DNA of 64,000 nucleotides from a virus (Duplodnaviria; Caudoviricetes), in the IMG/VR virus record IMGVR_UViG_3300044518_000037, positions 11,808-75,807 of that record, one strand, 5' to 3'. Below are positions 1,782 to 12,182 of this stretch, in pieces (the stretch's first letter is position 1; each line of letters begins with the position of its first letter). The position numbers and the translations under genes were made by a program. The notes under the pieces are model-generated. The model did not search any database and was not told the DNA's origin. It was given only the letters and a program-made list of their open reading frames with translations.

Positions 1782-2498
1782 ATGGCTCAGCGTGTGCAGG
1801 TCATTCTTGAGGACGACCTCGACGGCGGAACGGCAGACGAGACCGTAACATTCGCCCTCGACGGCGTGGCCTACGAGATCGACCTGAAATCAGGGAACGC
1901 GGAAAAGCTGCGCGCCCTGTTCACCCCCTACGTTGAGAAGGGGCGCAGGACCACAAAGCGGGGCGCATCGTCGCAGCGAACTCCTCGATCGTCGGCGCCG
2001 GCGCGGAACGGTCACGCCAAGGTCGTGCGCGCCTGGGCGAAGGCCGAGGGTCTCTCCGTTGAAGGCCGTGGCCGCGTTCCTGCTCCGATTGTGGAGGCGT
2101 TCGAGGCTGACCAGCTCGGCGATAGGTCACTCCTGGAGAATCTCAAGAAGATGCCCCTCTACTCGGACGCGGCGCTGGAGGCCGGCCAGGACGAGGAGGA
2201 CCCTGGGGCGCCCACGGCCCAGCCCGAGGACGGCGCTGCGCGGCCTGCGACCGTGGAGATCACGGAGGACGACCGGATCAAGGCTGCACAGGTTTTCAGC
2301 AGCAACCCGGCTTCCGAGGCTGGGATCGGGCACCTGCGGGCCGCCCGCGACAACGGGGGTGTGTTCGTGCGGAAGGGCTCGGCGGCTCCCGGGATTATCA
2401 AGGGGCTCTCGGCCCGGGAGCTCGGTAGCGAGGACCGGCAGCGCATCACGGGGGTCGGCTACGCCTACCTGGAACTGGTTGAGCAGGCTGCTGGCTGA
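1782..2498 (+). CDS. lsr2: Lsr2-family nucleoid-associated protein with about 120-aa C-terminal extension
   Basis: MAQRVQVILEDDLDGGTADETVTFALDGVAYEIDL dimerisation motif; VRAWAKAEGLSVEGRGRVPA DNA-binding motif. Confidence 0.93.
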   Translation: MAQRVQVILEDDLDGGTADETVTFALDGVAYEIDLKSGNAEKLRALFTPYVEKGRRTTKRGASSQRTPRSSAPARNGHAKVVRAWAKAEGLSVEGRGRVPAPIVEAFEADQLGDRSLLENLKKMPLYSDAALEAGQDEEDPGAPTAQPEDGAARPATVEITEDDRIKAAQVFSSNPASEAGIGHLRAARDNGGVFVRKGSAAPGIIKGLSARELGSEDRQRITGVGYAYLELVEQAAG

Positions 2499-2519
2499 GT
2501 GGCCTGAGGGCCCCGCTGG

Positions 2520-3119
2520 TCAGATAGCTGGCGGGGCCGAAGGCTTGTACTTGTCGCGGAGCTCCAGGGCGGCCAAGCCAACTCCGGTGATCTCGCGCCC
2601 CTCGGCGAGGCCCTTGCGCCGCAGACTCCTGAGGCTCGCCTCTGTGCCGGGCGACGGGTCAGGGGGGAACTGTCCGCCGTTCTTCGTTGCCAGGACCAAG
2701 TTCTCGAAGGCAGTGTCCGAAAGGGTCTTGTAGTACAGCCGCGCGGTGTCGCGGTCCTGCTGAGTGATCTGTTGCTGATCACTCTGGTCGTCGGGTAGTT
2801 CACCGCTCAGGAACTCATCCTCGAACTGTCGGGATACCTCCGACGGAACTCTGCCGTACTTGGGTACCTGAATCCCTTTGTCCCGGGCCCACCTGCGAAT
2901 AGTTTTCGCGTCCACCTGCGTGGTCTGGTGCGTAATTCCGGCGGCAGGTGTGATATCCCTGGCGGCTTGCAGGAAAGGCTCTAGCGCCTCCAGGAGCCGT
3001 TCCAGCCCTACCTTGTTCTCAGGATCCAGATCGATTTCGTAGAGCCTGCCGGCGAGTGGGAACTCAACTCGTTCGGCGCCGAGCTTGCCGTTCAGGTCGT
3101 CAATCAAGGCAATCGCCAT
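2520..3119 (-). CDS. Second, divergent Lsr2-like protein with a homologous C-terminal extension (alternative start 3155)
   Basis: LIDDLNG...VEFPLAGRLYEIDL and IRRWARDKGIQVPKYGRVPS match the Lsr2 motifs. Confidence 0.85.
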   Translation of the reverse strand: MAIALIDDLNGKLGAERVEFPLAGRLYEIDLDPENKVGLERLLEALEPFLQAARDITPAAGITHQTTQVDAKTIRRWARDKGIQVPKYGRVPSEVSRQFEDEFLSGELPDDQSDQQQITQQDRDTARLYYKTLSDTAFENLVLATKNGGQFPPDPSPGTEASLRSLRRKGLAEGREITGVGLAALELRDKYKPSAPPAI

Positions 3120-3475
3120 GAGCTTCTCCGATCCGGGTCCGTCGGTTCCAGGCATGGTAGCCGAGCGCGTGGCGCGCCTTCGGGCATCCCTACTGCTCGG
3201 TACGTCGAACGGCCCTGCTCTGAAGCAGGGAGGCGAGCATGGCATGGACGCGCCTTATTGGCATGGACACACTGTGGCTTCAAGTAGTGAGCAGTCGTTA
3301 CCGCAGGTGAAAGGGGGTGTGCAGCGTCCGAGGCTCGCAGTAGGCTCGTCATCTCTGAGCCAATCGGGTGAATCGAGACAGACCCTAAGTTGGTTATCGT
3401 TTTTTGACCTTTCAGACCAGTTTGGGATGTATGGTCCTCGCAGCAACGATCTTCCAGCTAGGGGGAACGAGACCT

Positions 3476-4908: not shown

Positions 4909-4924
4909 GGTGGGCGTGTTTAAG
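4909..4924 (+). repeat. Left direct repeat (attL-like core) GGTGGGCGTGTTTAAG
   Basis: 15/16 identical to 8087-8102. Confidence 0.7.
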
Positions 4925-4993
4925 GTGTAGGAATTCCGCCGATGGACCGTTCGGGCGGTATGAATTATCTGATCTGTCATTGCTTGTGGCGGT

Positions 4994-5230
4994 ATGTCTA
5001 GTTTGGGCGCTATGGGAAACATAGCTGACCAGGCAGCAGCCGGTTCCTTCACGCAAGCATCGCGCCCACCTGACACACCCCGTGCCGATGGAGAGTCACC
5101 TCGGCCTGACCGACGTGACGTCGAGATGATCTGGACCGTCGTAGATGAACCGTCGACCCCCAGGCACCGGCGACTGCTAGAGATCCTCTTCGCGACCGGT
5201 GGAGAGGCGTACGATGAAGCGATCACCTGA
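4994..5230 (+). CDS. Small protein upstream of the recombinase (start 4994 or 5012)
   Basis: ORF with C-terminal amphipathic RHRRLLEILF helix; co-oriented with the recombinase. Confidence 0.55.
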   Translation: MSSLGAMGNIADQAAAGSFTQASRPPDTPRADGESPRPDRRDVEMIWTVVDEPSTPRHRRLLEILFATGGEAYDEAIT

Positions 5231-5290
5231 GTAACACTCAAGTGCCCTTGCTGGGCGCGTGGTTGTGACCAGGCCGCAGAACGTACAGAT

Positions 5291-5332
5291 GACCCCCGGG
5301 GCGACGCTTGGCCGGCTCCCGTCCCGGGGGTC
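5291..5332 (+). promoter_or_regulatory. Strong hairpin in the recombinase leader (possible attenuator)
   Basis: GACCCCCGGG...CCCGGGGGTC 10-bp perfect stem, 23 bp before the ATG. Confidence 0.45.
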
Positions 5333-5355
5333 TCGCCAGTCGTTAGGGGACTGAC

Positions 5356-7347
5356 ATGCGCAATGGAACCTTGCCAAGGTCTCGGAAGGCAAGCGGACCG
5401 GTCCGTGTGGCCATATACGTCCGGGTTTCCACCCGTGAGCAGGTCAAGGGGTACGGCCTGAAGGTCCAAGAGGACGGCTGCATAGCCTGGCTCAACGCCA
5501 TGCTCCGTGGGAACTTCGTGATCGTCGATGTCTACAAGGACGCCGGTGTCTCCGGAAAGAAGAGCTCCCGACCCCACTTCGACCGTCTCAACCGGGACGT
5601 GAAGGACCGGAAGATCGACATGGTCATCGCCCACAAGCTGGACCGCGTCGGGCGAACCATGCGAGACATCCAGCGCTGGGTCTGGAACCTCCTCGACGAG
5701 AAGATCCGTTTCGTCGCGGTGAGCCAGGGCCTCGACTCCGACACCGAGACCGGTCAGCTTCAGATCAGCCTCTTCGCCTGGCTGGCCGAGATCGAGCACG
5801 GGCTCATCCTCAGCCGGACTATGGACGGCCGGGAGAACAAACTGGCGGCCGGCGGCTGGCCAAGCGGGCTCGTCCCCTACGGGTACGCGATCGAGGGTAA
5901 GGGCAAAGAAGCTGTCGTCGTCCTGTGCGAGGACGAAGTCAGCGTAATCGAGTACGCCGTCCACGTTGCCGTCGACGAGAAGCACAACTGGGAAGACGTG
6001 GCCCGTCTACTCAACGAAAAGAAGATGCGCAGGCGCTTCGGCAAACCCTGGACCGGCAACATGGTCCGCCAGATTCTCGGCCACACGGCCATCCTGGAAG
6101 GCAAGGCGTACTTCCGAAAGACCGGCCCTGGAACCAGGACAAAGCTCGACGAGGACGGCCTCCCACTCTACGGGGACACCGTAGCCATCGAGCTCCCCCG
6201 AATCCTCAGCGAGGAGCGGGCAGCAGCGCTGGCGAAGATCATCAAAGACAGGGCCAGGTTCCACAGCCCCGACGCCAAATACCCGCTCAGCCGCCGGATC
6301 AACGGATCCTGCGGCGAGGTCTACGTCGGAAGCGGTGTCGAGGACCACCGAATGTACCGATGCAACGGAAACCACCGGGAAACACCGTGCGGCGACGCCT
6401 ACCTGGACGCTGACGCCCTCGAAGCCGCAGTCTGGGACGAACTTGCCGACTTCCTAACCGACCCCTCCCGCCTCCAAGCTCTCGCGGAGCAATACATCGA
6501 GTCCCTCCCTGGCGCTCAAAGCGACCACGAGGAGCGACTGGCTTCGCTGAAGGACCAGGTGGACGAGAAAGAGTCCGCACTCGCCACCGCGATCATTACG
6601 TGCGCCACCCTGAAGCTGGATGAGGAAGCAGCCAAGAAGGCGACAAGCCAGCTTGACACGGACCTGGCCGTACTCCGCGCGACTCTCGCCGAGGCAGAGG
6701 AGTGGCAGGAAGAGCACGCAGCCGCCCAAGCCCAGGCACGCGACTTGATCACGCTGATCGAGAAGGCCCGTGGCAAGCTGGCCTCACTTAGCCTGGGCAC
6801 TCAGGGGGAGATCTTCGAGATGCTCGACATCCAAGTCCACCCCGAATCACACGGCTTCCAGAAGCGCTCCGGAATCAGGTGCTCAGTACGGGCCTGGCAC
6901 GTGGAGAAGGAGGTCCTCGTGCCAGCTGCGCCCAATGATGAGGACTGGGCGGCGGTCATGGAGATTCTGAGCCGCCGTTTCCCGGAAATCGCGCGCTCCA
7001 GGTCGGACCCTCGCAAGCTCTTCTGCGGCATGCTGCACCGCCTGCGCACGGGTGAGACATGGGAGGCGATGGACAAGCACTGGGGGTCCACGGCAAATCT
7101 CAAGAGGTATCAGAGCCTCTGGTTCAAGTCTGGGGCCTGGAAGGAGATGCTCCTCGTGCTGCCCAAGGACGGGGCGAAGCCTGTCTTCCAGCCCCGAGTG
7201 ATCCCCAAGCTGCGGGTTACCGGTGTGGTCAGGAGGTCGGTCTATGACCCCAGCGCTGCCGTAGCCGAACCTTCGGATGGTCCTACCGATTCCTCGGCAA
7301 CCGTGAGGTCAGGAGAAGGTTTGGCTTTCGTTCTCGCAGCTGCCTGA
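5356..7347 (+). CDS. Large serine recombinase (resolvase, recombinase, Zn-ribbon, coiled coil) with an IS5/DUF4096-like HTH near the C-terminus
   Basis: YVRVST with catalytic Ser, AGVSG, KLDRVGR, GGWPSGLVPYGY, YRC...C; WAAVMEIL...RKLFCGMLHRLRTGETWEAM...WG...W..SGAW. Confidence 0.93.
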   Translation: MRNGTLPRSRKASGPVRVAIYVRVSTREQVKGYGLKVQEDGCIAWLNAMLRGNFVIVDVYKDAGVSGKKSSRPHFDRLNRDVKDRKIDMVIAHKLDRVGRTMRDIQRWVWNLLDEKIRFVAVSQGLDSDTETGQLQISLFAWLAEIEHGLILSRTMDGRENKLAAGGWPSGLVPYGYAIEGKGKEAVVVLCEDEVSVIEYAVHVAVDEKHNWEDVARLLNEKKMRRRFGKPWTGNMVRQILGHTAILEGKAYFRKTGPGTRTKLDEDGLPLYGDTVAIELPRILSEERAAALAKIIKDRARFHSPDAKYPLSRRINGSCGEVYVGSGVEDHRMYRCNGNHRETPCGDAYLDADALEAAVWDELADFLTDPSRLQALAEQYIESLPGAQSDHEERLASLKDQVDEKESALATAIITCATLKLDEEAAKKATSQLDTDLAVLRATLAEAEEWQEEHAAAQAQARDLITLIEKARGKLASLSLGTQGEIFEMLDIQVHPESHGFQKRSGIRCSVRAWHVEKEVLVPAAPNDEDWAAVMEILSRRFPEIARSRSDPRKLFCGMLHRLRTGETWEAMDKHWGSTANLKRYQSLWFKSGAWKEMLLVLPKDGAKPVFQPRVIPKLRVTGVVRRSVYDPSAAVAEPSDGPTDSSATVRSGEGLAFVLAAA

Positions 7348-7365
7348 CCAGCGCAGATGCCACCC

Positions 7366-7403
7366 CCGAACCCCCTGAGCCGAGACTGGGCCAGGGGGTT
7401 CGG
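7366..7403 (+). terminator. Hairpin between the recombinase and the resolvase-like gene
   Basis: CCGAACCCCCTG / CAGGGGGTTCGG perfect 12-bp stem. Confidence 0.65.
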
Positions 7404-7471
7404 CGTTCCCCACCCACCTGTCAGCCCGTAGCCATAAGCTGCTGGCGAAGACCCAGAGAGGACAACCGATA

Positions 7472-8020
7472 GTGGAACTGAAGCGAGCAGCGGTGTACGT
7501 ACGGCAGCGCGGCGAGCAAGGCGAGCACGGGCTTGACGCCCAGCGAGCGGCCTGTGAGCGGTGGGCCGCCGAACGACGGATGCAGATCGTCGCGGAGTAC
7601 GAGGGCGAAACAGCTAACAGGGTGAGCGCTGAGCTCCTCGCAGACCTCGGGGCCGGTAAGTTCGACGTCCTCATCGCGGATCTCGGGCCGGAGACGTTCA
7701 CGCGCGATGCCAGTAGGTATCAGGCGTTGCTCGCGGCGGCAGCCGAGGCGGGCGTCGAGGTGTGCACTCTCCCCGCTCCGAACCTGCTGATCAAGATTGC
7801 CCAGCGCATCATTGAAGGGCGTGACCGCAACGCCGGACAGGAGCAATCCGGGGACGCGGACCGTGAAGATGTGTACCTCTCGGCGCTCTGGGATGTACTT
7901 GCCGTAGCCTTCGGGTCCAAGACGCCGCTGGGTCACCTCGAAGAGGAAGCGCTGGAAAAGCCTCTTGAAGCCCTGGTCGAGCAGTTCATCGAGTCCGCGC
8001 GGAACACCCAGAACATGTGA
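7472..8020 (+). CDS. Resolvase-like (serine recombinase N-terminal domain) protein lacking the catalytic serine
   Basis: AAVYVRQRGEQGEHGLDAQRAACERWA...IVAEY...GKFDVLI; YVRQ replaces YxRVS. Confidence 0.8.
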   Translation: MELKRAAVYVRQRGEQGEHGLDAQRAACERWAAERRMQIVAEYEGETANRVSAELLADLGAGKFDVLIADLGPETFTRDASRYQALLAAAAEAGVEVCTLPAPNLLIKIAQRIIEGRDRNAGQEQSGDADREDVYLSALWDVLAVAFGSKTPLGHLEEEALEKPLEALVEQFIESARNTQNM

Positions 8021-8086
8021 TGGCCCTGCGGCGACTGCCCGAGCTGACATCGACTCCGGTGAGTGACATCGGTTCGGTCTCCCGCC

Positions 8087-8102
8087 GGTGAGCGTGTTTA
8101 AG
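8087..8102 (+). repeat. Right direct repeat (attR-like core) GGTGAGCGTGTTTAAG
   Basis: 15/16 identical to 4909-4924. Confidence 0.7.
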
Positions 8103-8112
8103 ATGCCCCACT

Positions 8113-8135
8113 TTGTCACTCACGCTCAGTGACAA
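8113..8135. promoter_or_regulatory. Perfect inverted repeat TTGTCACT-N7-AGTGACAA (operator-like)
   Basis: 8-bp dyad upstream of the gene at 8215. Confidence 0.5.
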
Positions 8136-11744: not shown

Positions 11745-12182
11745 ATGTGGAACCGCCGCGATTTGGACTACCGCCTCCGGCACGGCACGAGCCCGCCGGC
11801 GCCACCTCCACCGCCGAAGCACAAGCTCCGGGAGCACGGGGACTTCCTGCGATGCACAGCGTGCTGGGCGACGTGGCGGGACAAGGACGCCGCCAAAACT
11901 CGCAAGCAGCCGTGCTTCGAGCTTCCGGTGCCGCACGGGCACCCCTACGAGCGTCGGCACTACACGAAGTTGCGCTGGTTCCGGGGCGCGAACTTCGGCG
12001 ACGCCCTGTGCGACGAGCCCTTGTGCCGCGAGTGCGTCGGGCACGAGTGCGCCTGCGACGTGTGCACGGGAGACATTGACGTCAAGGAGATCCCCGGGAT
12101 CAACGCCGTGATCGAGGACCCGGTTTCGCACGCTCGCTACGCCCTCAACGCCGAGCAGATCGAGCGCGGCCTGGCCCGGTAG
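11745..12182 (+). CDS. Cys-rich putative zinc-binding protein
   Basis: ATG after GGAG; CTAC, PC, CDEPLCRECVGHECACDVC. Confidence 0.75.
   Translation: MWNRRDLDYRLRHGTSPPAPPPPPKHKLREHGDFLRCTACWATWRDKDAAKTRKQPCFELPVPHGHPYERRHYTKLRWFRGANFGDALCDEPLCRECVGHECACDVCTGDIDVKEIPGINAVIEDPVSHARYALNAEQIERGLAR

Follow-up and report, generated by a model that had tools for sequence, protein, structure and literature searches.

A DUF4096-like helical domain marks a subfamily of large serine recombinases in Streptomyces phages and one-gene elements

Three domains and a coiled coil account for site recognition and one-way control in the large serine integrases, which are key tools of genome engineering. A gene found in 64,000 nucleotides of a Caudoviricetes virus (positions 11,808 to 75,807 of IMG/VR record IMGVR_UViG_3300044518_000037; this whole stretch is called the window hereafter) raises the question of what a fourth folded domain, similar to the N-terminal DUF4096 region of IS5-family transposases, is doing in such an enzyme. 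The gene, at 5356-7347 of the + strand, encodes a large serine recombinase (LSR; P0001), and an earlier note made from the letters alone had considered the region to be a DNA-binding domain captured by this LSR. The presence of an IS5-type domain inside the LSR was upheld, but it is not peculiar to this gene: comparison of sequences indicates that DUF4096 within an LSR is the hallmark of an old LSR subfamily and not a local accident, and the subfamily is found both in Streptomyces phage integrases and in solitary one-gene integrative elements.

Judged by its sequence and by structure prediction, the protein has the parts that define the LSR class, namely the catalytic domain, the two DNA-binding domains (DBD1 and DBD2) and the coiled coil, and its open reading frame (ORF) is intact as had been claimed, with 663 amino acids and zero stops; the gene call on a metagenome contig places the start at 5407, giving 646 amino acids. 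All the parts lie on the + strand. The Resolvase catalytic domain (PF00239; 5407-5859, residues 18-168, Pfam E 7e-33) carries the catalytic serine S25 in the motif YVRVST, and the conserved Arg and Asp residues are retained family-wide: R23, S25, D62, S66, R72 and R100 are at least 90% conserved in the family, and D96 and R97 are invariant in an alignment of four integrases. It is followed by the Recombinase domain, DBD1 (PF07508; 5929-6252, residues 192-299, 31.0 bits against a cut-off of 21.1), and by the first part of the zinc-ribbon domain, DBD2 (Zn_ribbon_recom, PF13408; 6304-6444, residues 317-363, 27.3 bits, cut-off 25.3), in which Cys319, Cys336 and Cys345 are conserved. The coiled-coil insertion in DBD2 was placed at 6517-6822 from the predicted helices (residues 388-489); the AlphaFold2 (AF2) prediction has these helices at 388-418 and 423-477, with a pLDDT of 68-91 by 10-residue block. 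Afterwards comes a family-specific linker (6868-6936, residues 505-527) with a short helix at 510-518 and the conserved residues G506, C509, W514, V522 and P523, and then the DUF4096-like helical domain itself (6937-7149, residues 528-598). The protein closes with a beta strand that aligns with the closing zinc-ribbon strand of solved LSRs (7204-7233, residues 617-626, P617 being invariant) and with an extra terminal strand (7318-7341, residues 655-662, GLAFVLAA) predicted to pair with the preceding one; hydrophobic ends like GLAFVLAA are also present in relatives. The gene product is a functional-looking LSR of a distinct subfamily.

The peptide that the earlier note had reported at 6931-7160 (PNDEDWAAVMEIL...SGAWKEMLLV) is the exact translation of the + strand in the LSR frame, and its proposed identity was borne out, as PF13340 matches residues 528-598 over positions 3-75 of the 76 in the profile. 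The score was above the Pfam gathering cut-off of 34.3, both in the whole protein (40.3 bits, E 3.7e-10) and for the fragment alone (43.2 bits, E 4.8e-11). The NCBIfam model for the IS5 family transposase (NF033580) was matched only at its N-terminal positions 6-83 of 258, with 42.9 bits against a cut-off of 110. The statement that no DDE domain follows held as well: no DDE family of Pfam matched in the protein, the ORF stops 65 residues past the domain, and neither Pfam nor NF033580 revealed the DDE domain that follows the N-terminal domain in an IS5-family transposase.

The LSR copy and the N-terminal domain of IS5-family transposases and OrfA proteins (DUF4096, NF033580) are homologous over the whole 76-position profile and have the same conserved Trp, Gly and Arg positions. 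However, the LSR copy, unlike the IS5 one, is not N-terminal and has no DDE catalytic domain after it. In addition, the LSR copies score together and with flanks of their own (C..W..E..VP before and LPP..V.G after the domain), whereas IS5 copies match the core only; written in full, these family-specific flanks are a linker G..C....W(H/F).E...VP and a strand LPP..V.G. Within the domain, at least 27 of 30 members retain W531, R553, K/R562, R564, W569, W589, G593 and W595. Three of these conserved positions are basic (R553, K/R562 and R564), and the mean net charge of the domain is +2.6. A tree of LSR-type and IS5-type copies, with LSR copies in up to three groups, was poorly resolved with its 86 columns and, as consequence, we make no claim of a single or a multiple capture.

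With respect to its position, the domain does stand after the coiled coil, as the earlier note had stated, but it is not merely appended there: structure alignment puts it inside the zinc-ribbon domain. The AF2 model of the C-terminal 164 residues, built from the family alignment, had a mean pLDDT of 86.9, and of about 97 over the domain, and gave one short helix, the six helices of the domain and then two paired strands. In the full-length AF2 model (pLDDT 84) the coiled coil occupies residues 388-489 and is followed by a short strand (493-496), the helical module, a strand at 619-625 and the last strand at 656-662. Alignments of this model to phage serine integrases run over the whole length (Z 15-16), and those to solved full-length integrases reach model residues 624-632, past the domain; the chains aligned were phiC31 (1-591), Bxb1 (1-486 and 182-486, with 162 of 177 residues), LI (134-452) and an SPbeta-type integrase. 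As structural alignments keep residue order, the canonical end of the zinc ribbon appears to be the strand after DUF4096. DUF4096 is therefore likely, on this predicted model, to be nested in the zinc-ribbon domain directly after the return of the coiled coil, followed by the closing strand and then by one extra strand.

The earlier note had proposed a survey of architectures besides the domain scan, and the survey located many relatives. A translated search of 50,697 phage records gave 24 records covering at least 80% of the protein, and all 24 were Streptomyces phages (Diane, Hank144, Tefunt, phiHau3, phiScoe1 and others). Annotated serine integrases of these phages have 669-673 amino acids, and those of Diane, Tefunt and phiHau3 align end to end with the window LSR at 32-36% identity and have sub-threshold DUF4096 matches (17.8-25 bits) at the same position. 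With the last 164 residues as query, an exhaustive phmmer run against 1.84 billion representatives produced 130 matches, of which the top ones were proteins of 640-770 amino acids aligned at about residues 505-660, and the lower ones short proteins matching the domain core only, as expected of IS5 OrfA-type proteins. When 30 long relatives were scanned, DUF4096 was found in 30 of 30 (E at most 0.01, best 9.6e-22) and Resolvase in 29. Members of the subfamily are 28-48% identical to the window LSR.

A profile built from the C-terminal module was also run against the genomes of 151 sampled Streptomyces species, and the full LSR-type module was present in at least 25 of them, roughly one in six. 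These matches extended from model positions 1-7 to 142-167 with 81-174 bits and lay mostly in open frames of 548-1089 amino acids, a few being broken by stop codons. Most of the lower-ranked matches covered only model positions of about 48-124, with at most 86 bits, in short frames mostly below 400 amino acids. The module is old and under selection. The architecture of LSR plus DUF4096 is already visible in automatic annotations; relatives are named "recombinase family protein" in their sources (S. hydrogenans, S. canus, S. anthocyanicus and S. mesophilus) and "Pin-like recombinase/transposase" in IMG. In the searchable literature we found no paper with both DUF4096 and "serine recombinase", and nothing on the phiHau3 integrase; the two papers in which DUF4096 appears deal with unrelated subjects. 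The subfamily has apparently been undescribed so far. One relative (P0175) is encoded in a siphophage with the lysis cassette on one side and the early genes on the other, which is the classic position of a phage integrase.

Other relatives stand by themselves amid core genes, and evidence about mobility was given by one of these solitary chromosomal copies. The interval between rseP and ispG holds an LSR gene in S. canus and in seven further species, eight in all (locus L010, 9790-11950, in S. canus KQ948311; also L011-L018), whose recombinase is 31% identical to the window LSR. Comparison with empty sites across Streptomyces genomes showed an insertion of exactly 2,139 bp in the 3' end of rseP. 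Its boundary sequences, TGTAGTTAACCCGGTCAAGATC and TGTGGTTAACCCGGTGAGAATC, are identical at 18 of 22 positions and share an 11-bp identical core; the empty site has one copy of the boundary sequence at the rseP 3' end. This precise insertion, together with the empty sites, shows the mobility of this relative, and attB, attL and attR are hereby defined for one member of the subfamily. The element contains the recombinase gene alone and has no room for a partner gene. Its left arm restores the last codons of rseP, and the recombinase frame continues across the right junction to its own last codons and stop. The copies have diverged in parallel with their flanks (65-91% protein identity), and for this reason they may be long-resident; one species has an internally deleted copy.

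The fact that the ORF of the rseP-type recombinase does read across its attachment site, and that some genomic copies are split and annotated as transposase, could suggest that the domain is an artefact of a junction or an assembly, with an ORF reading into a fragment of an IS5 transposase, or else an inert and decaying relic. This is highly improbable and is already contradicted by the phage genomes and the 30 relatives. Isolated phages have the domain in their free virion genomes; conserved recombinase strands, and no DDE domain, come after it; and conservation of the same residues extends to all 30 members in spite of their low identity to the window LSR. Moreover, the same LSR ORF was found on two contigs: the window is part of a 75.8-kb viral record with a CheckV completeness estimate of 77%, and the second contig is a 102.9-kb metagenome contig with the same sequence.

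What the domain does was approached from these data, and the reading that we favour is that the nested domain acts as a third module contacting nucleic acid, something that its homology and predicted position make possible although still short of probable. The zinc-ribbon domain DBD2 would carry a nested helical domain of about 75 amino acids, whose homologue is the N-terminal domain of IS5-family transposases; in DDE transposases the domain at this end is generally taken as the end-binding one. The three conserved basic positions and the net positive charge point the same way. DUF4096 would then sit beside the zinc-ribbon domain, on the outer part of each att half-site or on a further site borne by the element. 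In addition, it may determine or limit the trajectory of the coiled coil, because the insertion would be at the junction between zinc ribbon and coiled coil, where directionality factors bind in other integrases. That the domain binds DNA, and that it influences the choice of site or directionality, is what we infer.

Several points weigh against this reading. Over its core, the domain is less basic in LSRs (+1.7) than in IS5 proteins (+4.0). The reconstructed rseP-type sites have no clear second conserved motif or symmetric outer repeat, and modest conservation extends to about +37 nt on the non-coding arm only. The nested position derives from the first and last aligned residues against a predicted model and not from a residue-level alignment. 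With respect to structure, Foldseek of the C-terminal model against the PDB gave no match with E at or below 0.001, and the best hit of a wide VIA fold search had a Z of 4.5, among unspecific mixed helical DNA-binding folds; as no PDB chain was matched by the sequence of the C-terminal 164 amino acids even at E 10, the domain is without a solved structural relative in PDB sequence and fold searches. Finally, we know of no experiment or solved structure showing DNA binding by DUF4096.

The main rival is that the domain and the extra strand form a built-in directionality module, acting in cis like, or instead of, a recombination directionality factor (RDF), DNA binding not being its main role. 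We consider it unlikely but to be taken seriously, and it is compatible with a third DNA-contacting role. In such a case the recombinase could work without a partner or in both directions, as one-gene elements need, and the rseP-type element, with its recombinase gene alone, would agree with this. So would the insertion directly after the return of the coiled coil, the added terminal strand and the lower basicity of the LSR copies relative to the IS5 ones. All the verified RDFs examined with AlphaFold2-multimer were predicted to be at the junction between DBD2 and the coiled coil, a model backed by an SPbeta structure and by biochemical data cited there; most of the RDFs modelled add a strand to the sheet, and the same study puts forward that C-terminal extensions may block this site (PMC12286644). 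However, phage-borne members, which would be expected to need a regulated excision, have the same module. In addition, the rseP-type copies look vertically inherited across their eight species and may no longer be moving.

Another argument against a self-sufficient module is a conserved small ORF upstream of many members, which is itself a possible partner. In the window it is a 34-amino acid ORF at 5126-5230 of the + strand (MIW...RRLLEILF...), and ORFs of about 35 amino acids with the pattern ..IW..(8-12)..RRLL.LLF.. precede many phage-borne members, such as gp52 of Diane with 36 amino acids (L001, 2798-2908; other copies at L042 3336-3443, L045 5033-5140 on the - strand, and L059 9821-9928). 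It is absent from the solitary chromosomal copies and had no match in PHROG. From its sequence and place it could be a candidate partner or directionality factor, or a regulatory upstream ORF.

Between this ORF and the recombinase there is a leader with two hairpins on the + strand. The first one (5291-5332, GACCCCCGGGGCG / CGTCCCGGGGGTC) is found at the same place in relatives with another stem sequence. The ribosome-binding site lies within the second one (5335-5355, G.CAGTC - GTTAGGG - GACTG.C), whose end is 2 nt ahead of the ATG. The same arrangement, namely a GC-rich hairpin of variable stem, GCCAGTC, 4-7 nt with the ribosome-binding site, GACTGAC and the ATG, is seen in distant members (window 5283-5358; L010 9935-10003; L056 163-201; L059 9965-10003; and L044, L045, L047 and L049). 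The stem of the second hairpin varies as CAGTC/GACTG, CAGCC/GGCTG, CGACT/AGTCG and CACTC/GAGTG; 88% of its cells are paired versus 77% in shuffles, and 13 double changes were counted where 3.3 were expected, neither value being reached by any of 500 shuffles. Four of its six pairs covary, and slid controls were far lower. An Rfam search gave no family for the leader.

Insertion-sequence transposases use their DNA-binding domains to bind element ends overlapping the promoter of the transposase itself, and a further explanation by analogy is that the domain might bind the leader of its own gene, as DNA or RNA, and throttle the expression of the recombinase. The two-hairpin leader with near-invariant flanking bases adjoining the start codon in distant members is in favour of it, as are the covariation of the second hairpin and the fact that about 95 nt of leader are nearly invariant in nine Streptomyces species while the flanks differ by 10-25%. 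Nevertheless, compensatory changes in the stem point to an RNA structure masking the ribosome-binding site, for which the protein is not needed, and we regard autoregulation by the domain as improbable.

The gene in the window could itself belong to a small element. A 19-bp direct repeat, with its left copy at 4909-4927 (GGTGGGCGTGTTTAAGGTG) and its right copy at 8087-8105 (GGTGAGCGTGTTTAAGATG), both on the + strand, brackets the small ORF, the LSR and a resolvase-like gene without the catalytic serine. The copies are identical at 17 of 19 positions around an AT-rich GTTTAAG centre and are the only two matches in the 64 kb, versus 0.03 expected. Going by the sequence, the pair may fit a 3.2-kb recombinase element nested in the phage. 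The resolvase-like gene (7472-8020, + strand) encodes a 182-amino acid resolvase-domain protein lacking the nucleophilic serine, with YVRQRGEQ in place of the catalytic YVRVST motif and a weak match to a PHROG integrase family (E 9e-6); it was not seen beside the relatives examined and is specific to the cassette of this phage. When viral contigs were searched with the LSR and also with both of its flanking proteins, no close relative of the phage was found, and a generic direct-repeat scan around 20 other Streptomyces copies gave matches at noise level only. All the repeats found around the LSR gene were direct, no search aimed at IS5-type ends having been made. Two other observations were put aside. 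The 19-bp repeat was also present once each in two unrelated giant viral contigs without a recombinase, which was taken as chance. A 10-bp inverted repeat (8059-8068 / 8114-8123), considered as the edge of attP, was dropped because no dyad symmetry between the arms was apparent by eye and because its size is only mildly unexpected by a rough estimate.

The boldest combination of these data would be that the domain and the extra strand are a self-contained module for directionality and site recognition, that a single 2.1-kb gene is a complete site-specific element without an RDF and with hairpin-gated expression, and that 4909-8105 is such an element riding in a phage. A one-gene element of this kind would integrate, restore the 3' end of its target gene and read its own C-terminus across the attachment site. 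Taken as a whole, we find this doubtful, that is, quite unlikely.

Comparison with known systems helps to delimit the subfamily. The phage integrases phiC31, Bxb1, Listeria A118/LI and SPbeta SprA have the same catalytic, recombinase, zinc-ribbon and coiled-coil parts. In agreement with the earlier note, the domain is not in the structurally characterised integrases (phiC31, Bxb1, LI and SPbeta-type): the solved proteins have no sequence like the inserted domain, while the DUF4096 subfamily adds about 110 residues, corresponding to the linker and DUF4096, and a terminal strand. To our knowledge, no transposase-type helical domain has been reported in the SCCmec Ccr and TnpX/TndX recombinases. 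The window LSR has no equivalog-level similarity to CcrA, CcrB or CcrC: the NCBIfam Ccr models matched its N-terminal part only, with scores well under their cut-offs (107.5 bits against 900 for CcrB). In the Ccr and TnpX/TndX recombinases DBD2 ends with additional strands, for which a blocking of the RDF site has been proposed (PMC12286644); no partner is known for the movement of their elements, and the 2.1-kb one-gene elements would likewise have to move without one. The IS607-family serine transposases also unite a serine-recombinase catalytic domain and a helix-turn-helix DNA-binding domain within a minimal mobile element (PMC4058570); unlike the LSR, they are small serine recombinases with an N-terminal DNA-binding domain and little target specificity, and they are not known to have recombinase or zinc-ribbon domains. 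The rseP-type element, in contrast to that family, is strictly site-specific. The SCO2603 elements, which are small, carry an LSR and occupy the phiJoe attB, are also non-phage Streptomyces elements moved by a serine integrase, but they have a separate RDF gene, a variable content and a phiJoe-type integrase (PMC5311408).

The interest of the subfamily is that it is a sizeable natural group of LSRs with a fourth folded domain that is probably placed exactly at the junction where directionality factors act. It therefore constitutes a ready-made test of how far this junction tolerates insertion and of the addition of extra DNA contacts, and it is easy to reach through isolated Streptomyces phages and the Streptomyces genomes surveyed. 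The one-gene elements offer a lead on the smallest form that a site-specific mobile element can take, and the conserved leader hairpin offers one on how the recombinase is kept in check.

In S. anthocyanicus and S. hydrogenans a second solitary type has a P450 gene and an rpf gene as its neighbours (L009 8547-12066 and L057 7168-12333, compared with the empty loci L061 and L062). Homology with the empty genomes starts again 27 bp upstream of the stop of the recombinase. Compared with those genomes, the P450 (and globin) segment has the opposite orientation, and a 109-nt inverted copy of the 3' end of the P450 gene lies 3' of the recombinase gene. This rearrangement may be an inversion made by the recombinase or a more complex integration.

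Finally, some features surrounding the recombinase of the window were recorded. A terminator-like hairpin with a perfect 12-bp stem is located 3' of the LSR ORF (7366-7403, + strand). A few kb upstream, at 1782-3245 (L006 6376-7749), the gene calls of the metagenome contig show two convergent genes, whose domains are Lsr2 and Lsr2 DNA-binding.

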